From Myxococcota bacterium (GTDB taxonomy: Bacteria > Myxococcota_A > UBA9160 > UBA6930): a stretch of 64,000 nucleotides of DNA. Shown here piece by piece: positions 2,769-36,259 of this stretch. Below the pieces are notes generated by a model. That model saw only the letters and a program-made list of their open reading frames with translations, was not told the origin of the DNA and made no database searches. How positions within the stretch are numbered: the stretch's first letter is position 1; every line of letters starts with the position of its first letter. Where the stretch lies: positions 3,936,001-4,000,000 of the forward strand of contig OZ245002.1 in NCBI GenBank assembly GCA_965223415.1. The letters are read 5' to 3'. The position numbers and the translations under genes were made by a program.

Positions 2769-3386
2769 TCAATCCGAAACGGAGACCCGCCCCTCCTCGA
2801 TCCGCAGCCGGCCCAGGGCGAACGCCCGCACTGCTTCCGGCACCAGCCGTCGCTCGGCCTCGGTCACCCGGGCCTGCAGGGTCTCGATCGTGTCGTCCTC
2901 GCGCACCGTCACCGCCTCCTGGGAGACGATCGGTCCGTGGTCGTACTCCTCGTCGACGAAGTGCACCGTGGCACCGGTGACCTTCACGCCCTTGGCGAGC
3001 ACCGCCTCGTACACCCGACGGCCGTAGAAGCCCCGGCCCGAGAAGGCCGGGATCAGCGCCGGGTGCACGTTCAGGGCGCGGCCCTCGTAGCACCCGCGCA
3101 GCTGGAAGGGCGAGAGGAAGCCCAGCAGGCACACGAGCTCCACCTCGTGCTCGGCCAGGAAGGCGTGGATGCGGTCGTTGAACGCCTCGAGGTCGCGATG
3201 CCGCTTGCGCGGGACCGCGAGGGCCGGGATGCCGCGCTTCTCCGCCCGGCGGAGCCCGCCCACGTCTTCCTTGGAGCTCACCACCGCGACCACCCGCGCC
3301 GGCACGCGTCCCGCGTCGATCTGCTCGCACAGGTTCTCGAGGCTCGTGCCCTCGCCGGAGAGGAGCACGCCCACACGCAGCGTCAT
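2769..3386 (-). CDS. purN: Phosphoribosylglycinamide formyltransferase
   Basis: VLLSGEGTSL, LNVHPALIPAF, GATVHFVDEEYDHGPI. Confidence 0.95.
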   Translation of the reverse strand: MTLRVGVLLSGEGTSLENLCEQIDAGRVPARVVAVVSSKEDVGGLRRAEKRGIPALAVPRKRHRDLEAFNDRIHAFLAEHEVELVCLLGFLSPFQLRGCYEGRALNVHPALIPAFSGRGFYGRRVYEAVLAKGVKVTGATVHFVDEEYDHGPIVSQEAVTVREDDTIETLQARVTEAERRLVPEAVRAFALGRLRIEEGRVSVSD

Positions 3387-6512: not shown

Positions 6513-7327
6513 CGGGCGTCCGCCAGCCAGGCGACCGCGGCTGCCACGTTGTCCCCCGCCCGCTTCTCGCGATGGGAGCCGCAGGCGCGCTCGCAGACCG
6601 CCCGGGCCAGGGCGGGGGCGCGCAGGTCGGCGGGCTCCCGCCCGGCGCCTTGCACCGCGGCGGCGACGGCCGCCGCCGGGTCCTTCACCCCGATTCCTTG
6701 CTCGCTCAGCCCGTCGGTCACGCACACCACCGCGCGAACGCCCGCCAGATCGTGACGCCCGAGCTGGCAGCGGGTGTGGAGGCTCTCCGGGGTCTCCTCG
6801 CGGGTGCCCAGGAAGGGGGTCGGTCGGCCGATCCGGGAGCCCAGCTCGTGCACGCTGCCCTCCGCTCCCACCACGAAGAGGTGGCTGTCGCCGACGCAGG
6901 CGTAGAAGAGATCCCCGGTCTCGGGGCGGACGAGGGTGGCGACCAGGGTGGTCTCCGAGTCCAGGTGCAGGCCCTGAGCCTTCTCGCGGAGGATGTCCAG
7001 GTTCGCGTCGCAGAGGGCGGCGAGGGCGTGACGACCCCAGCCGGTGAGGAAGCTCGCGTCGTCGCCGGTCCACTGGGGCGCCGGGTGGGCGAGCAGGTGC
7101 TCGACCGCCACCTCCGCCGCCTCGAAGCCCGAATGGCCGTCGGCCACGACCAACAGGGCGCCACCGGTCCCGCGGAAGAATCCGGCGGTGTCCTCGTTGG
7201 GATCGGTGTGCAGGTAGCTCTTGGGTGCGCCGCCCCGGGAGTTGGCGATGGCGACGGGTCCCTCGGCGACCACGTCCACCGCGCCGAGGTGGTCATGCTC
7301 CCGGCCACGAAGGACCGCGGACTTCAT
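6509..7327 (-). CDS. PP2C-family Ser/Thr phosphatase
   Basis: NED, VVADGHSG, CVGDS, VTDGL, GDN motifs. Confidence 0.85.
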   Translation of the reverse strand: MKSAVLRGREHDHLGAVDVVAEGPVAIANSRGGAPKSYLHTDPNEDTAGFFRGTGGALLVVADGHSGFEAAEVAVEHLLAHPAPQWTGDDASFLTGWGRHALAALCDANLDILREKAQGLHLDSETTLVATLVRPETGDLFYACVGDSHLFVVGAEGSVHELGSRIGRPTPFLGTREETPESLHTRCQLGRHDLAGVRAVVCVTDGLSEQGIGVKDPAAAVAAAVQGAGREPADLRAPALARAVCERACGSHREKRAGDNVAAAVAWLADAR

Positions 7328-7413
7328 GGGTCGCAGGATATCGGCGCCGTCGCTGGCCTGCGAGTGATCCGGCGCGGTGTATCGGAGGAACCCCTTAGAT
7401 ACTCCCTTCGTCG

Positions 7414-8409
7414 TCAACCCTTCGTGGCGAAGAATTTCTCGCCAAGGAAGTCCTGGTCGTGGCGGAGCATGCCGTAGATGGCGTGGAGCAGCTTCCGCAT
7501 GACGGCGACGAGTGCTTGCATCTTGGTTTTGCCCTTGGAGAGCAGCTTCTCGTAGAAGGCCTTCACGTTCGGTTCCCAGCGTGCAGCGACCATCGCAGGA
7601 AGAAAGAGTGCGCGGCGAAGGTGGGCGTTGCCGGTCTTGCTGATGCGAGCTGGCTTGTGCACAGAGGTGCCCGATTGAAACTGTCGGGGGTCGAGGCCCG
7701 CATGCGCGACCCATTGCCGGGTCGTCATGTCCTTGGGCAAGGTGCCTAGCTCGGCGAGCAACTGGATGCCGGCTGCGTCGGCGATACCCTTGATCGATGT
7801 GATGTGGCCGAAGTCTCTGGCGAGCTCGGGGCTCTGCTCGATCACCTTCAACGCTTGCTTGCGCAGCCGATCGATTCGCCCCTCCAGGAGCTCGATCAGT
7901 TCGCGGATGTCTTGCTTCACGAACTCACTGAGCTCCTCGCTCTGGTCGTTGGCATGGAGCCGGTTCTTCTCCTGCGTCACGGTCTTGCTCAGAGCCTCCA
8001 CGCGGCGGGAGAGGGCCCGTACCTCCAGAATTCGGGGGTCCGGCGGAGTCCAGGCGGAAAACTCCATGCGCATTCCGAACTCGAGAATCGTTTCCGCATC
8101 GAGCGCATCCGTCTTGGAGCGTTGAAGCGATGCCTTGGCGAACGCGGCAATGGCCCGCGGGTTCGCCACCATCACCTGGGACGCCTTCGCACGGTGAAGC
8201 GCGAACGCGAGGTCGAGGCCGTACACCCCGGTCGATTCCAGGACGACGCGCGCCGTCGCATTCCCCTTCGTGGCCCACCGAATCAGCCTCTGGTGGCCCT
8301 TGGGATCGTTCGCAAAGACCAGCCCGCCCTCGCGAGTTCCGTTCCGGTCGATGGCGACGACGAGCTCCTTCGCCCCGACGTCCACGCCCACGTAATGACA
8401 CTTCTTCAA
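7414..8409 (-). CDS. IS110-family DEDD recombinase/transposase
   Basis: YVGVDVG, LESTG, KTDALD (DEDD), GLDPRQFQSG (catalytic Ser), RISKTGNAHLR. TTG start after GGAGGAG. Confidence 0.95.
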   Translation of the reverse strand: MKKCHYVGVDVGAKELVVAIDRNGTREGGLVFANDPKGHQRLIRWATKGNATARVVLESTGVYGLDLAFALHRAKASQVMVANPRAIAAFAKASLQRSKTDALDAETILEFGMRMEFSAWTPPDPRILEVRALSRRVEALSKTVTQEKNRLHANDQSEELSEFVKQDIRELIELLEGRIDRLRKQALKVIEQSPELARDFGHITSIKGIADAAGIQLLAELGTLPKDMTTRQWVAHAGLDPRQFQSGTSVHKPARISKTGNAHLRRALFLPAMVAARWEPNVKAFYEKLLSKGKTKMQALVAVMRKLLHAIYGMLRHDQDFLGEKFFATKG

Positions 8410-8419
8410 GGTCTCTCCT

Positions 8420-8630
8420 CCCCGTGATAAGCTGGGACCCGGGTCTCCCGACCCTGCACATTCACCTACGGACCTTGTAGACGCAGGCTCTCGGGCCTCG
8501 GATACTCCACGGCATGGGTGACGAGGGCGGGAGGCCCATCTAACGGACAAGCTCTCTGGCTTCAGGCAGCGACGGCCTTTCCCGGGAACCCATCTCGGAG
8601 TCTCACTCAGGCCCGAAGAGCCTGCTCAGA
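8420..8630 (-). ncRNA. Predicted IS110 bridge RNA (5' hairpin, target-binding loop, donor-binding loop)
   Basis: 5' cUUCGg hairpin followed by two internal loops whose single-stranded segments match the flanks and the reconstructed end-to-end junction. Ends are approximate. Confidence 0.8.
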
Positions 8631-8727
8631 GGTACAAGAGCAGCGCGTGCCGGCCCGGATTATCCTGCCCCCCTGATCCGCATGGACGCGGATCCGCCTC
8701 AGCCGAACGCAAGGGGATGCTTCGCCC

Positions 8728-9360
8728 ATGGACTGGGTCCGGCCGGTCTGCCACGAGCTCGGGAACCTGCTGGCAGGTGTCCAGCTCTCGGGGCACTTCC
8801 TGGGCGGCGAGCTCTCCGATCGCGATCGCCGGCAGGTGGCCCGGGACGTCCAGCTCCTGAGTGCCCAGGCCGGCGCATGGGTCGCGCTGATCCGTCCGCT
8901 CCAGCTGCGCAAACCGCCGCTCTCCCGGGTGGCACCGGCCGAGATCCTGGCCGCCCTGCGCCGGAGCGTCGATGAGCTCTTGTGGAAGCCCGACCAGCTC
9001 AAGGTGTCGAAGGGCACGCGGCAGTCGGACGTCCGGGTCGACTCGGACGCGGTCCACCATCTGCTGGCGCTCCTCGTGAGCGCCGCCCTCGCCGACGGGG
9101 GCGCGACCTCCCAGCTCCGCCTGGGCACCCGCCAGCAGTCGCGGCACCTGGTGCTGGCGCTGACCGATACGGGCCCGGTCCTGCCCAAGCCCACGGCGGT
9201 GCCCGCGGCCCGCGGGCGGGAGCTGGCGCTCCAGGTGGGCGACGCGATCCTGCGGGCCGGCGGCGGAAGGCTCGCTCTCGTGTCGCGCCGCGTGGGCAAT
9301 CGCATCGAGCTCTACCTGCCCTGGGCGCCTCGCCGGGCTCGGGCGGCGCGGCGCGGCTAG
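8728..9360 (+). CDS. Sensor-less histidine-kinase-like protein (H-box plus degenerate ATPase domain)
   Basis: CHELGNLLAG H-box and LTDTGP G1 box; N-box and G2 box degenerate. Confidence 0.6.
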   Translation: MDWVRPVCHELGNLLAGVQLSGHFLGGELSDRDRRQVARDVQLLSAQAGAWVALIRPLQLRKPPLSRVAPAEILAALRRSVDELLWKPDQLKVSKGTRQSDVRVDSDAVHHLLALLVSAALADGGATSQLRLGTRQQSRHLVLALTDTGPVLPKPTAVPAARGRELALQVGDAILRAGGGRLALVSRRVGNRIELYLPWAPRRARAARRG

Positions 9361-9403: not shown

Positions 9404-10327
9404 TCAGGCGGCCCGCGCCAGGGTGGCCTTGGCGGCGCGGCCCGCCCGGATCGCCCCGGTGGGCTCGCGGAGGTCCCAGACGAGCCCCACCCATGAGAGC
9501 GCCTTCAGCACGTACCAGGTCACGTCCACCTCCCACCAGAAGAAGCCGTTGCGGGCGGCCGCCTGGTAGTAGTGGTGGTTGTTGTGCCAGCCTTCGCCGC
9601 AGGTGAGCAGCGCGATCCACAGGTTGTTGCGGCTGGTGTCCGTCGTCTCGTAGCGGCGCGAGCCCCAGAGGTGGGCCAGGGAGTTCACGCAGTAGGTGGC
9701 GTGCCACAGGGCCGTGGTCGAGACGGCGAAGCCCCACACCAGGCCCGGGAAGCCCGCGACCAGGCCGCACAGCACGGCGAGGGTGAGCGGCGGTACCCAG
9801 TGGTGCTTGTTCAGCCACACGAGCTCCGGGAAGCGCGCGAAGTCCTTGATCACGTCCTCCGGCGTGCCCTCCCAGCGGGAGTCGAAGATCCAGCCCTGGT
9901 GGGAGTGGTACCAGCCGTCCTTCGGACTGTGGGGGTCGCCTTCCTGGTCGGAGAAGCGATGGTGGCGCCGGTGGTTGCCCGCCCACCAGAGCGGCCCCTT
10001 CTGGGTGGCGGAACAGCCGATCCAGGCGATCACGAACTGGAAGATGCGGCCGGTCTTGTAGCTCTTGTGGGAGAAGTAGCGGTGGTAGGCGCCGGTGATG
10101 CCGAGGACCCGCACCACGTAGGTGGCCACGCCGAGCAGTACGGCCTCGACGGGCGCGCCGACCACCAGGACCAGGAGACAGGCGGCGTGAATGCCCCAGT
10201 AGACGGCCCTGGAGAGCACGTCCGTGCGGGTCAGCCAGCCGTCGGAGGCCTCGAAGCCCTGGCGGTAGCTCTCGGGCTCGGGCGTCCCGGGGCGCGGATC
10301 TTCCTTGGCCGGTGCAGCGCTCGCCAT
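9404..10327 (-). CDS. Membrane acyl-CoA (delta-9-like) desaturase
   Basis: Three His boxes: HRYFSH, HRRHH, GEGWHNNHH. Confidence 0.92.
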   Translation of the reverse strand: MASAAPAKEDPRPGTPEPESYRQGFEASDGWLTRTDVLSRAVYWGIHAACLLVLVVGAPVEAVLLGVATYVVRVLGITGAYHRYFSHKSYKTGRIFQFVIAWIGCSATQKGPLWWAGNHRRHHRFSDQEGDPHSPKDGWYHSHQGWIFDSRWEGTPEDVIKDFARFPELVWLNKHHWVPPLTLAVLCGLVAGFPGLVWGFAVSTTALWHATYCVNSLAHLWGSRRYETTDTSRNNLWIALLTCGEGWHNNHHYYQAAARNGFFWWEVDVTWYVLKALSWVGLVWDLREPTGAIRAGRAAKATLARAA

Positions 10328-34912: not shown

Positions 34913-36259
34913 CTACCTCGCGGAGGAGCGCCCAGGCCGCGCTGATCCGCGTTGTCGTGGAGAGCTCGCCGTCCTGCCGGCGGCAGACCGCCCGAGGCCG
35001 AACAACCCGAGGCCAAGCAACATCGCTGCACCCGGCTCGGGAACGGCGCTGACGTAGGTGCGGAAGTGAAAGTCGCGGGTCGCGCTGCAGGCGAAAGGGC
35101 CTCCGTTCGACCCGCAGCTGTCTCCGAGCGCGTAGAGGGGGTCCCCCGCCGAGTCGAAGCCGGCGGCCCATGCGTACTGGTAGACCGGCCCGGTCGTCGG
35201 CACCGACAGAACCAGCGCCAGGAGATCGCCCGGTGCGACGGCGATTCCGTAGACACTGACGTCCAAGCTGACCCAGGAGAAAGTGGTCGGGACACCCGAG
35301 ACCACGATGCTCGCCAACGCTGGACCCGTCGGGACCCCGCCGGCCGCCGAGAAGATCTCGACTGTGAGGTTGGAGACGCTGTTCCTGGAGACTTCGAACT
35401 CGATCCTGTCGAGAGTTCCGGAGGCCCCCACCTCGAAGACCTGCGCAAGATGGGTCGCCGTGACCCCGAGGGCAGCATTCCCCGAGCCGAGGTCGTAGCT
35501 CTGGTCGAGAATGGGGACGGCACGCGCACCTCCGCTCGCCATGAGTGAGAGCGCCAGGACCGCGGACGCGCGGCTGGCCGGCGAGCGCAGGACGCCAGAG
35601 GCCGCACCGAGAGGACGCACCTCTCGCTTCCTCCGTCCTCCAGCGAACAGCAGGACGCCGCCGGCAACCAGCATCAAGAGACTCGTGCCAGGCTCCGGGA
35701 CGACCTCAGCGAACGTGTGACTGATCGTGCCGGCGACGAATATCGGCGAAGTCGAATTCCCGGTGTGGTACCAGAACGTGTGGTTGGTCGACCCATCGAC
35801 CAGGAAGCGAGCGATCATGTCGGCGGGGCCGCTGACAGCGCCCATCTGCGGCCCGAGGTAGACGCCGTAGATCTCCACCAGCCTCGGCGCACCGTTGGTG
35901 TACCAGAACTGGGCGCTCGCGTTGGAGGGCGTGTAGGCCAGTCCACCAAGCGTCAGCGTGATCGAGTCGATCGTTGCCGAGAGCTTCTCCGTCCCGATTC
36001 CCGTGATCGCCGAGTCATCGAAGGTGATCGTCGCGGAGCCGATCGCTGGATCGGTGGGAGCTGTACACCCGCCCGAACAGGTGAACCCGGACGCCGAGAA
36101 GCTCCCCGAGTAGGTGGTTGCATGAGACACCGCGGCCGAGAGAACACCCGCTGCCGCGACCGTGACGAGCGAAACCCGGAAAGCTGCCCGTCCCAAGAGA
36201 CCCGCCGCCGCCACGAACGCAACTCGACACGACGTGCCATCCCACGTGAAGACACTCAT
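34913..36259 (-). CDS. Secreted protein with two PEP-CTERM sorting signals and an internal signal peptide
   Basis: VPEPGTSLLMLVAGGVLLFAGGRRKR mid-protein (35690-35701) and VPEPGAAMLLGLGLFGLGR near the C-terminus (35033-35044); no stop between them. Confidence 0.75.
   Translation of the reverse strand: MSVFTWDGTSCRVAFVAAAGLLGRAAFRVSLVTVAAAGVLSAAVSHATTYSGSFSASGFTCSGGCTAPTDPAIGSATITFDDSAITGIGTEKLSATIDSITLTLGGLAYTPSNASAQFWYTNGAPRLVEIYGVYLGPQMGAVSGPADMIARFLVDGSTNHTFWYHTGNSTSPIFVAGTISHTFAEVVPEPGTSLLMLVAGGVLLFAGGRRKREVRPLGAASGVLRSPASRASAVLALSLMASGGARAVPILDQSYDLGSGNAALGVTATHLAQVFEVGASGTLDRIEFEVSRNSVSNLTVEIFSAAGGVPTGPALASIVVSGVPTTFSWVSLDVSVYGIAVAPGDLLALVLSVPTTGPVYQYAWAAGFDSAGDPLYALGDSCGSNGGPFACSATRDFHFRTYVSAVPEPGAAMLLGLGLFGLGRSAAGRTASSPRQRGSARPGRSSAR

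Follow-up and report, generated by a model that had tools for sequence, protein, structure and literature searches.

The window, a stretch of 64,000 nucleotides (positions 3,936,001 to 4,000,000) of contig OZ245002.1 from a Myxococcota bacterium (assembly GCA_965223415.1), contains what is most probably (a probability of about 0.85) an IS110-group insertion sequence, intact in its sequence, with a DEDD/serine recombinase and a bridge RNA in its left end. The features of the element lie on the minus strand and are given in window positions. The whole element comprises 1240 bp (7397-8636), including the right-hand copy of its CT core, and consists of a left end of 227 nt (8636-8410), the recombinase gene (8409-7414) and a right end of 17 nt after the stop codon (7413-7397).

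The IS110 bridge RNA system has been known since 2024. The bridge RNA of IS621, an IS110-group element of Escherichia coli, was shown experimentally (PMC11208160, PMC11208158), and thousands of orthologous bridge RNAs have already been predicted by covariance model (PMC11208160). The element of the window is one more example of this known kind of bridge recombinase and brings no new mechanism. IS110-group elements have a long left end and a short right end, whereas in the IS1111 group the left end is short and the right end long (PMC11208160); with ends of 227 and 17 nt, the element is therefore not a member of the IS1111 group.

Recombinase and limits of the element

The recombinase gene codes for 331 amino acids, starts with TTG and stops with TGA. 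The protein carries both IS110 Pfam domains, PF01548 (3.8e-26) and PF02371 (1.5e-20), and its sequence matches among the solved structures of the PDB are ISCro4 and IS621 (2e-46), with no others. ISCro4 (PDB 9t56), with which the comparison is by protein alone, is the best of these, with an E-value of 4.2e-49 over residues 3-320. Like IS621, the window protein is a two-domain recombinase (DEDD and Tnp), and the two are 36% identical in amino acids. In IS621, the DEDD motif and catalytic serine consist of residues D11, E60, D102, D105 and S241, and recombination is lost when any single one is mutated (PMC11208158). These residues, taken from the translation of plasmid locus L006 as the IS621 protein, align with D10, E58, D101, D104 and S246 of the window, and all five catalytic residues (5/5) are kept. 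A GGAGG ribosome-binding site (8421-8417) precedes the TTG start, within a 53-nt spacer (8462-8410) that separates the bridge RNA core from the start codon.

The boundaries were set with three relatives found in one scan of a genome collection: L001, from a Gemmatimonadota metagenome-assembled genome (MAG); L002, from an uncultured-bacterium MAG; and L003, from a Dehalococcoidia MAG, which provides the C-terminal part and the right end only. On the right-hand side, the window and the three relatives all cease to be alike at the identical CT. On the left-hand side, CT/TGTACCTCT is common to the window and L002 and the sequences diverge immediately before it, L001 being cut inside the left end. 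Similarity thus ends at CT on both sides, and the element proper is therefore placed at 7397-8636. Read on the minus strand, the core CT stands at 8638-8637 on the left and at 7398-7397 on the right, and the junctions are GCGCTGCT-CT/TGTACC and GGAGTAT-CT/AAGGGG (the slash marks the element boundary). The CT/TGTACC junction that follows the left core copy (8637-8638) is common to L002, and the right end proper (7405-7397), defined by its sequence and by comparison with the relatives, is made of the left donor GGAGTAT and the core CT.

An earlier sequence-only reading of this DNA had placed an intact IS110 element at 7391-8650. The element stands, and its exact limits have to be corrected, as that range takes in 6 and 14 flanking bases beyond 7397-8636. 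The motifs named by that reading are all present in the sequence at the minus-strand positions given for them. The word intact is upheld at the level of sequence only.

The bridge RNA and its guides

A search of positions 7000-9000 with Rfam 15, at E up to 10, returned no bridge RNA family and only two chance microRNA matches, and a dedicated covariance model was therefore built. Comparison of the recombinase with plasmids by tblastn gave 3086 records; from 40 listed, 15 were fetched, chosen for organism diversity (L004-L018, including IS621). The model, R1, was made from the aligned left-end cores of 14 of these plasmid-borne relatives, IS621 among them, and the window, L001, L002 and L004 were left out, the last (from Salinibacter) for its aberrant-looking target loop. 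The structure of R1, with four helices and 15 pairs, was set by hand from column-pair counts, because MAFFT followed by RNAalifold on 18 left ends found 3/4 helices and missed the inner target-loop stem through register shifts.

In the 64 kb of the window, R1 has a single significant match (51.9 bits, E 1.3e-13). It lies on the minus strand, at 8466-8585, and covers model positions 1-141 of 141. The sequence-only reading had proposed a covariance-model test of this region, and a model built without the clade of the window recognizes it. The second-best match in the window (35793-35891, minus strand; 8.2 bits, E 0.34) lacks most of the donor loop and is taken as chance. Over 19 sources R1 yields 18 matches at E < 0.001, and L003 has none. 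In the window row, cmsearch flags two of the 15 modelled pairs as non-standard, and by eye GGCC/GGCC pairs perfectly. The alignment of the 18 rows (A5) holds standard pairs in 87.1% of 264 cells, compared with 65.3% in shuffles, none of 500 being as high; sliding the partners by one to three columns leaves 24-52% pairing. Compensatory changes, on both sides of the pair, occur at all 15 pairs, and the paired cells of helices 1-4 amount to 75.4%, 89.9%, 90.7% and 93.1%, respectively.

The RNA has the same order of parts as that of IS621, namely a 5' hairpin, a target-binding loop and a donor-binding loop. The 5' stem-loop (8624-8608), read from the sequence and found also in L001 and L002, joins CAGGC and GCCUG through a loop with UUCG (CTTCGG at 8618-8613 in the DNA). 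The bridge RNA core that follows (8585-8466) holds the two loops. The target-binding loop with its closing stem occupies 8583-8529, where GGGA (8583-8580) and GGCC (8577-8574) pair with GGCC (8536-8533) and UCCC (8532-8529); this stem is read from the sequence, corresponds to helix 1 and is recovered when the guides are held unpaired in folding. Its inner hairpin (8562-8549; helix 2) pairs AAGC (8562-8559) with GCUU (8552-8549) around the loop CAGAGA, with compensatory changes at 4/4 pairs. The donor-binding loop and its closing stem extend over 8520-8463, with CACCCAUG (8520-8513) facing CGUAGGUG (8470-8463) at the cost of one C/A mismatch; helix 3 covers part of this stem, and the base C8470 is an A in L001 and L002. 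The inner hairpin of the donor loop (8498-8485; helix 4) consists of AGGC (8498-8495), the loop CCGAGA and GCCU (8488-8485), again with 4/4 pairs compensatory. The two inner stems, the GGCC closure and the UUCG hairpin had all been described from the letters of the sequence and are present.

In bridge RNA, as described for IS621, the left guides pair with the bottom strand and read as the top strand, whereas the right guides pair with the top strand as its reverse complement, and each guide includes the core (PMC11208160). The left donor guide GGAGUAUC (8508-8501; GGAGTATC in the DNA) is identical to the right end at 7405-7398, that is, it fits the right end and the first core base at 8/8 positions, and it occupies the columns of IS621 ACAGUAUC. 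The right donor guide UACAAG (8479-8474; TACAAG in the DNA) is the reverse complement of CT and TGTA at the left end (8638-8633; 6/6). Both guides thus agree with the joined ends GGAGTAT-CT-TGTAC, as the sequence-only reading had proposed, and this donor is nearly the same as the ACAGTAT-CT-TGTAT of IS621 (from L006), with the same CT core. The sequence GGAGTATC has two copies in the window (both strands, 128 kb), compared with 0.60 expected from shuffles, and 7/100 shuffles hold two or more; both copies are on the same strand and inside the 1.24-kb element. The position of the guide in the alignment columns of IS621 is judged a stronger argument than this rarity. In A5 the window segments UCGCUGCCU, CCGUUAG, GGAGUAUC and UACAAG coincide with IS621 AUCGGGCCU, UGCGUAG, ACAGUAUC and a segment ending in GCAAG, and the guide motifs of the window sit in the guide columns of IS621 and of 13 other relatives.

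The right target guide CCGUUAG (8546-8540) reads CT-AACGG on the DNA. The right flank of the window is CT-AAGGG (AAGGG at 7396-7392, where the guide predicts AACGG), a match of 6/7, compared with CT-AACGG and 7/7 in both L001 and L002. The left target guide UCGCUGC-CU (8572-8564; TCGCTGCCT in the DNA) stands in the columns of the left target guides of the relatives, and L001 and L002 differ from it at position 2 (C/U). This putative guide is read by homology, without confirmation from the flanks. The target guides of the window, TCGCTGC-CT-AACGG, differ from those of IS621, ATCGGGC-CT-ACGCA, so that a target specificity of its own, as predicted in the sequence-only reading, is a fair inference.

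The target loops were compared with the host DNA at 15 loci. On the left arm, the mean match to the own flank is 7.93/9, compared with 4.07 to the flanks of other loci (one of 206 cross pairs reached 8). On the right arm, the corresponding means are 6.27/7 and 3.63, and 12 of 202 cross pairs reached 6. For 13 relatives that are more distant, the in-register fit between left flank and left target guide is 7-9/9. These counts omit the left side of L001 (no left flank), L004 (unclear ends), the right side of L018 (no right end in the fetched stretch) and L017 (IS26 cuts its right end, and its left flank is the end of another element); also excluded were cross pairs among the members of the window clade and those between L006 and L009. 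To place the right ends of the relatives, the left donor guide of each was used, one mismatch being allowed, and therefore their donor matches hold by construction, while the target comparisons are independent.

On the circular form, a promoter could be assembled at the junction. The hexamer TTGACG (7417-7412), which overlaps the stop codon, is -35-like and scores 5/6 to a sigma-70 consensus that may not be the one of the host. It stands 15 nt before the core end, as in IS621, and a TTG-type hexamer occupies this place in 11/15 loci, IS621 included. At the -10 position lies TACCTC (8634-8629), in the same position as TATTAT in IS621 (L006); it scores 2/6 to TATAAT, compared with 5/6 in IS621. 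The weakness of the -10 match, pointed out from the sequence before together with the orientation that TTGACG would take into the RNA on the circle, is borne out. The weak -10 is common to L002, and is therefore a trait of the clade rather than damage to the window copy.

Insertion site, mobility and alternative readings

Several results weigh against the reading of an intact bridge RNA element. Alignment A5 was fitted to R1, and 14 of its 18 rows had trained the model. Folded as a single sequence, a 242-nt stretch is not distinctive (z = -1.02; 28/200 shuffles fold as well), and when the core is folded without constraint (-36.8 kcal/mol), parts of the guides become paired; the loop architecture (-27.1) is 9.7 kcal/mol costlier. 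The left target guide UCGCUGC-CU fits the left flank of the window, CGCTGCT-CT, at 2/9 in register, in the core only; L002, with the sole other left flank in the clade, reaches 6/9, and its three mismatches are all transitions. The -10 sequence TACCTC is the weakest among the 14 loci scored by the same sigma-70 consensus, possibly foreign to the host, and the integrated copy yielded no sigma-70-like promoter. Finally, the recombinase was seen as one member only, on a 5.83-Mb contig, and the genome therefore bears no sign of recent copying.

In the folding check that had been proposed for the left end, the single-sequence fold pairs parts of the guides and is not distinctive against shuffles, and the fold with guides kept unpaired gives the closing stem of the target loop. 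On the other hand, the IS621-type architecture put forward in the sequence-only reading is sustained by protein homology, by the clade-free covariance model, by helix covariation and by the covariation of guides and flanks in the relatives. The guides can be called fully readable in the case of the two donor guides and the right target guide, but not in that of the left target guide, given its 2/9 in the window and 6/9 in L002.

The conservation of the RNA points in the same direction as its architecture. Among the window, L001 and L002, the 120-nt RNA core is 96.7-97.5% identical, the coding sequence 76.9-80.1% and the spacer before the start codon 79-93% (79-85% between the window and the other two); third codon positions differ at 131/331 between the window and L001. 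The RNA, guides included, is therefore conserved far more strictly than the gene, which fits an RNA constrained by fixed donor ends and by a preferred target.

One neighbour of the element is the gene of a PP2C phosphatase (PF13672, 8.9e-14), on the minus strand at 7327-6512; the other is an open reading frame (ORF) without a Pfam match (8728-9360, plus strand). Neither blastn nor tblastn found a counterpart in L001-L003 for the 3-kb flanks or for the neighbouring ORFs (PP2C and left-hand), and hence no shared insertion locus. Between the window, L001 and L002 the genes next to the element are unrelated, and these are therefore separate insertions rather than one inherited locus. The immediate right flanks are weakly alike: the score of 15 between the window and L001 is reached by 3/300 shuffles, and that between the window and L002 by 196/300. 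The right flanks of L001 (1228-1250) and L002 (4013-4035) are themselves alike over about 22 nt (AACGGATCGG.CGT.CAGC), past the 5-7 nt that the guide reaches, with 10/300 shuffles as high; this likeness could reflect a preferred, repeated target sequence. The predicted target TCGCTGCCTAACGG, searched in the window with up to three mismatches, gave 5 matches where 9.3 were expected, and thus no repeated target in the window. A stem-loop at the empty site is reportedly present in the case of ISPpu10; at the in-silico empty sites of the window and of L002, stem-loops are no better than those of shuffles (160/200 and 19/200 as stable, respectively). Further from the element, a fatty-acid desaturase domain (9404-10180, minus strand; PF00487, 1.1e-20) lies within the C-terminal part of a long ORF to its left and is unrelated to it.

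In the left target flank CGCGCTGCT (8647-8639), the CGCTGC block stands one base too far from the core, with an extra T at 8639, and it fits the left target guide perfectly once shifted by one base. This displacement may go back to a change after integration (1-bp insertion or assembly error), to bulged pairing, or to entry by the right arm and the core alone. That the shift is secondary, by a post-integration insertion of 1 bp or a sequencing or assembly error in an original site GCGCTGC-CT-AAGGG, has slightly less than an even chance of being correct. Without T8639 the left flank fits the guide at 6/7 plus the core, and the in-register matches of all 13 of the more distant relatives (7-9/9) indicate that a displaced match is not a habit of the family. 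However, the left flank of L002 is likewise poor (6/9), with no indel to explain its mismatch.

The insertion would otherwise be a natural record of relaxed target reading, in which the left arm was bulged or the right arm and the core were sufficient, and this is considered unlikely. A preprint (10.64898/2026.08.31.748434) reports recombination at half-matching sites for IS621, from in vitro work and from editing data that were analysed anew, and the insertion, if entry by right arm and core were true, would be its natural counterpart. A left flank one base out of register bears on the strictness with which natural elements read their targets.

It is rather improbable, if deserving of some weight, that the element is stranded, intact in sequence and immobile in this genome after a single insertion at an imperfect site. 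Such a state would agree with a single recombinase of this kind on the single 5.83-Mb contig, with a left flank out of register with its guide, and with an integrated copy that has no promoter-like site and matches the -10 at 2/6. Against it, the reading frame is open with 5/5 catalytic residues kept, the donor guides fit both ends perfectly and the weak -10, through L002, is a trait of the clade. Moreover, the RNA core differs at only 3/120 positions from that of elements whose coding sequence has diverged by about 20%, a pattern that decay would not leave. More than 100 relatives, with 64-88% identity, were found, most of them on short contigs (1-3 kb), which is what elements present in many copies in other genomes should give. 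A search of plasmids with the DNA of the whole element gave two records only, both matching the 3' part of the coding sequence.

An intact and mobile element would follow the mechanism of IS621, by homology to which RNA expression, recombinase binding, circle formation and recombination are inferred. The element would excise as a circle, joining GGAGTAT-CT to TGTAC. The circle joint would set the TTGACG -35 at 17 nt upstream of TACCTC, and the bridge RNA would be transcribed from there. Subsequently, the donor loop would pair with the joint via GGAGUAUC and UACAAG, and the target loop with a site close to TCGCTGC-CT-AACGG via UCGCUGCCU and CCGUUAG. A recombinase tetramer would then exchange the strands at the CT core.

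The notion that the left end is a cis-acting leader controlling translation of the recombinase, with the end matches as ordinary terminal repeats, is very improbable: a structured stretch does lie directly upstream of the start codon and single-sequence folding yields other structures of lower energy, but the matches run on the strands that bridge RNA guides use (one arm sense and the other antisense, each with the core) and fall in the columns of the guides defined experimentally in IS621 (PMC11208160), and the target-loop sequences track the flanking host DNA across loci, which terminal repeats would not do.

Comparison with related elements

Apart from the low protein identity, the target guides and the weak -10, the element is unlike IS621 in several details. 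The 5' strand of its target loop is 1 nt shorter, and the strand of the right donor guide is 2 nt shorter, with six contiguous pairs. The RNA core is separated from the start codon by 53 nt, whereas the model match in IS621 ends 5 nt before the coding sequence. The G+C content is 0.65, compared with 0.50 in IS621. The elements of the IS1111 group, with their seekRNA, belong to the same protein family and are also RNA-guided (PMC13604230).

Bridge recombinases are under development as programmable DNA-insertion tools, and the orthologues vary widely in activity. With a compact RNA, readable guides and only 36% identity to IS621, the recombinase of the window is a candidate for direct screening. 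Its source is an uncultured lineage of high G+C, and the nearest relative found in the genome collection comes from the Gemmatimonadota MAG. For basic biology it offers nothing new in kind.

L001 and L002 resemble the window closely, with 83% and 82% amino-acid identity (best tblastn segment), the same ends and, save for the one base (C/U) of the left target guide, the same guides. They are unlike it in the perfect fit of their right flanks to the right target guide and in their flanking genes. L002 is also unlike the window in its broken N-terminal reading frame: in positions 3000-3330 the recombinase is out of frame over about the first 100 codons, and the long ORF begins in a different frame, at 3009, with an unaligned N-terminus. 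The break is either a frameshift or an assembly error.

Other observations concern the plasmid-borne relatives. In L017 (Salmonella enterica plasmid NZ_CP130092.1; 476-494 and 1781-2351), the left flank ACAGTAT-CT has the sequence with which IS621-type elements end on the right, and it fails to fit the left target guide of the locus itself. IS26 follows on the right side, and the arrangement looks like an insertion next to, or into, the end of another element. The closest plasmid relative among the 40 listed is L004 (437-600; Salinibacter ruber plasmid pSR118), with 50% identity and 26.9 bits with R1. The inner hairpin of its target loop is much longer, its junction dinucleotides appear to be TT/AT, and its guides are not readable with confidence. 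L015 (Candidatus Paracaedimonas plasmid CP008939.1; 460-461 and 1679-1680) has CA in place of CT at both junctions. Its left target guide, ending in GCAA-CA, and its right one, ending in CUG, carry the matching change, and the core dinucleotide therefore covaries with the guides.

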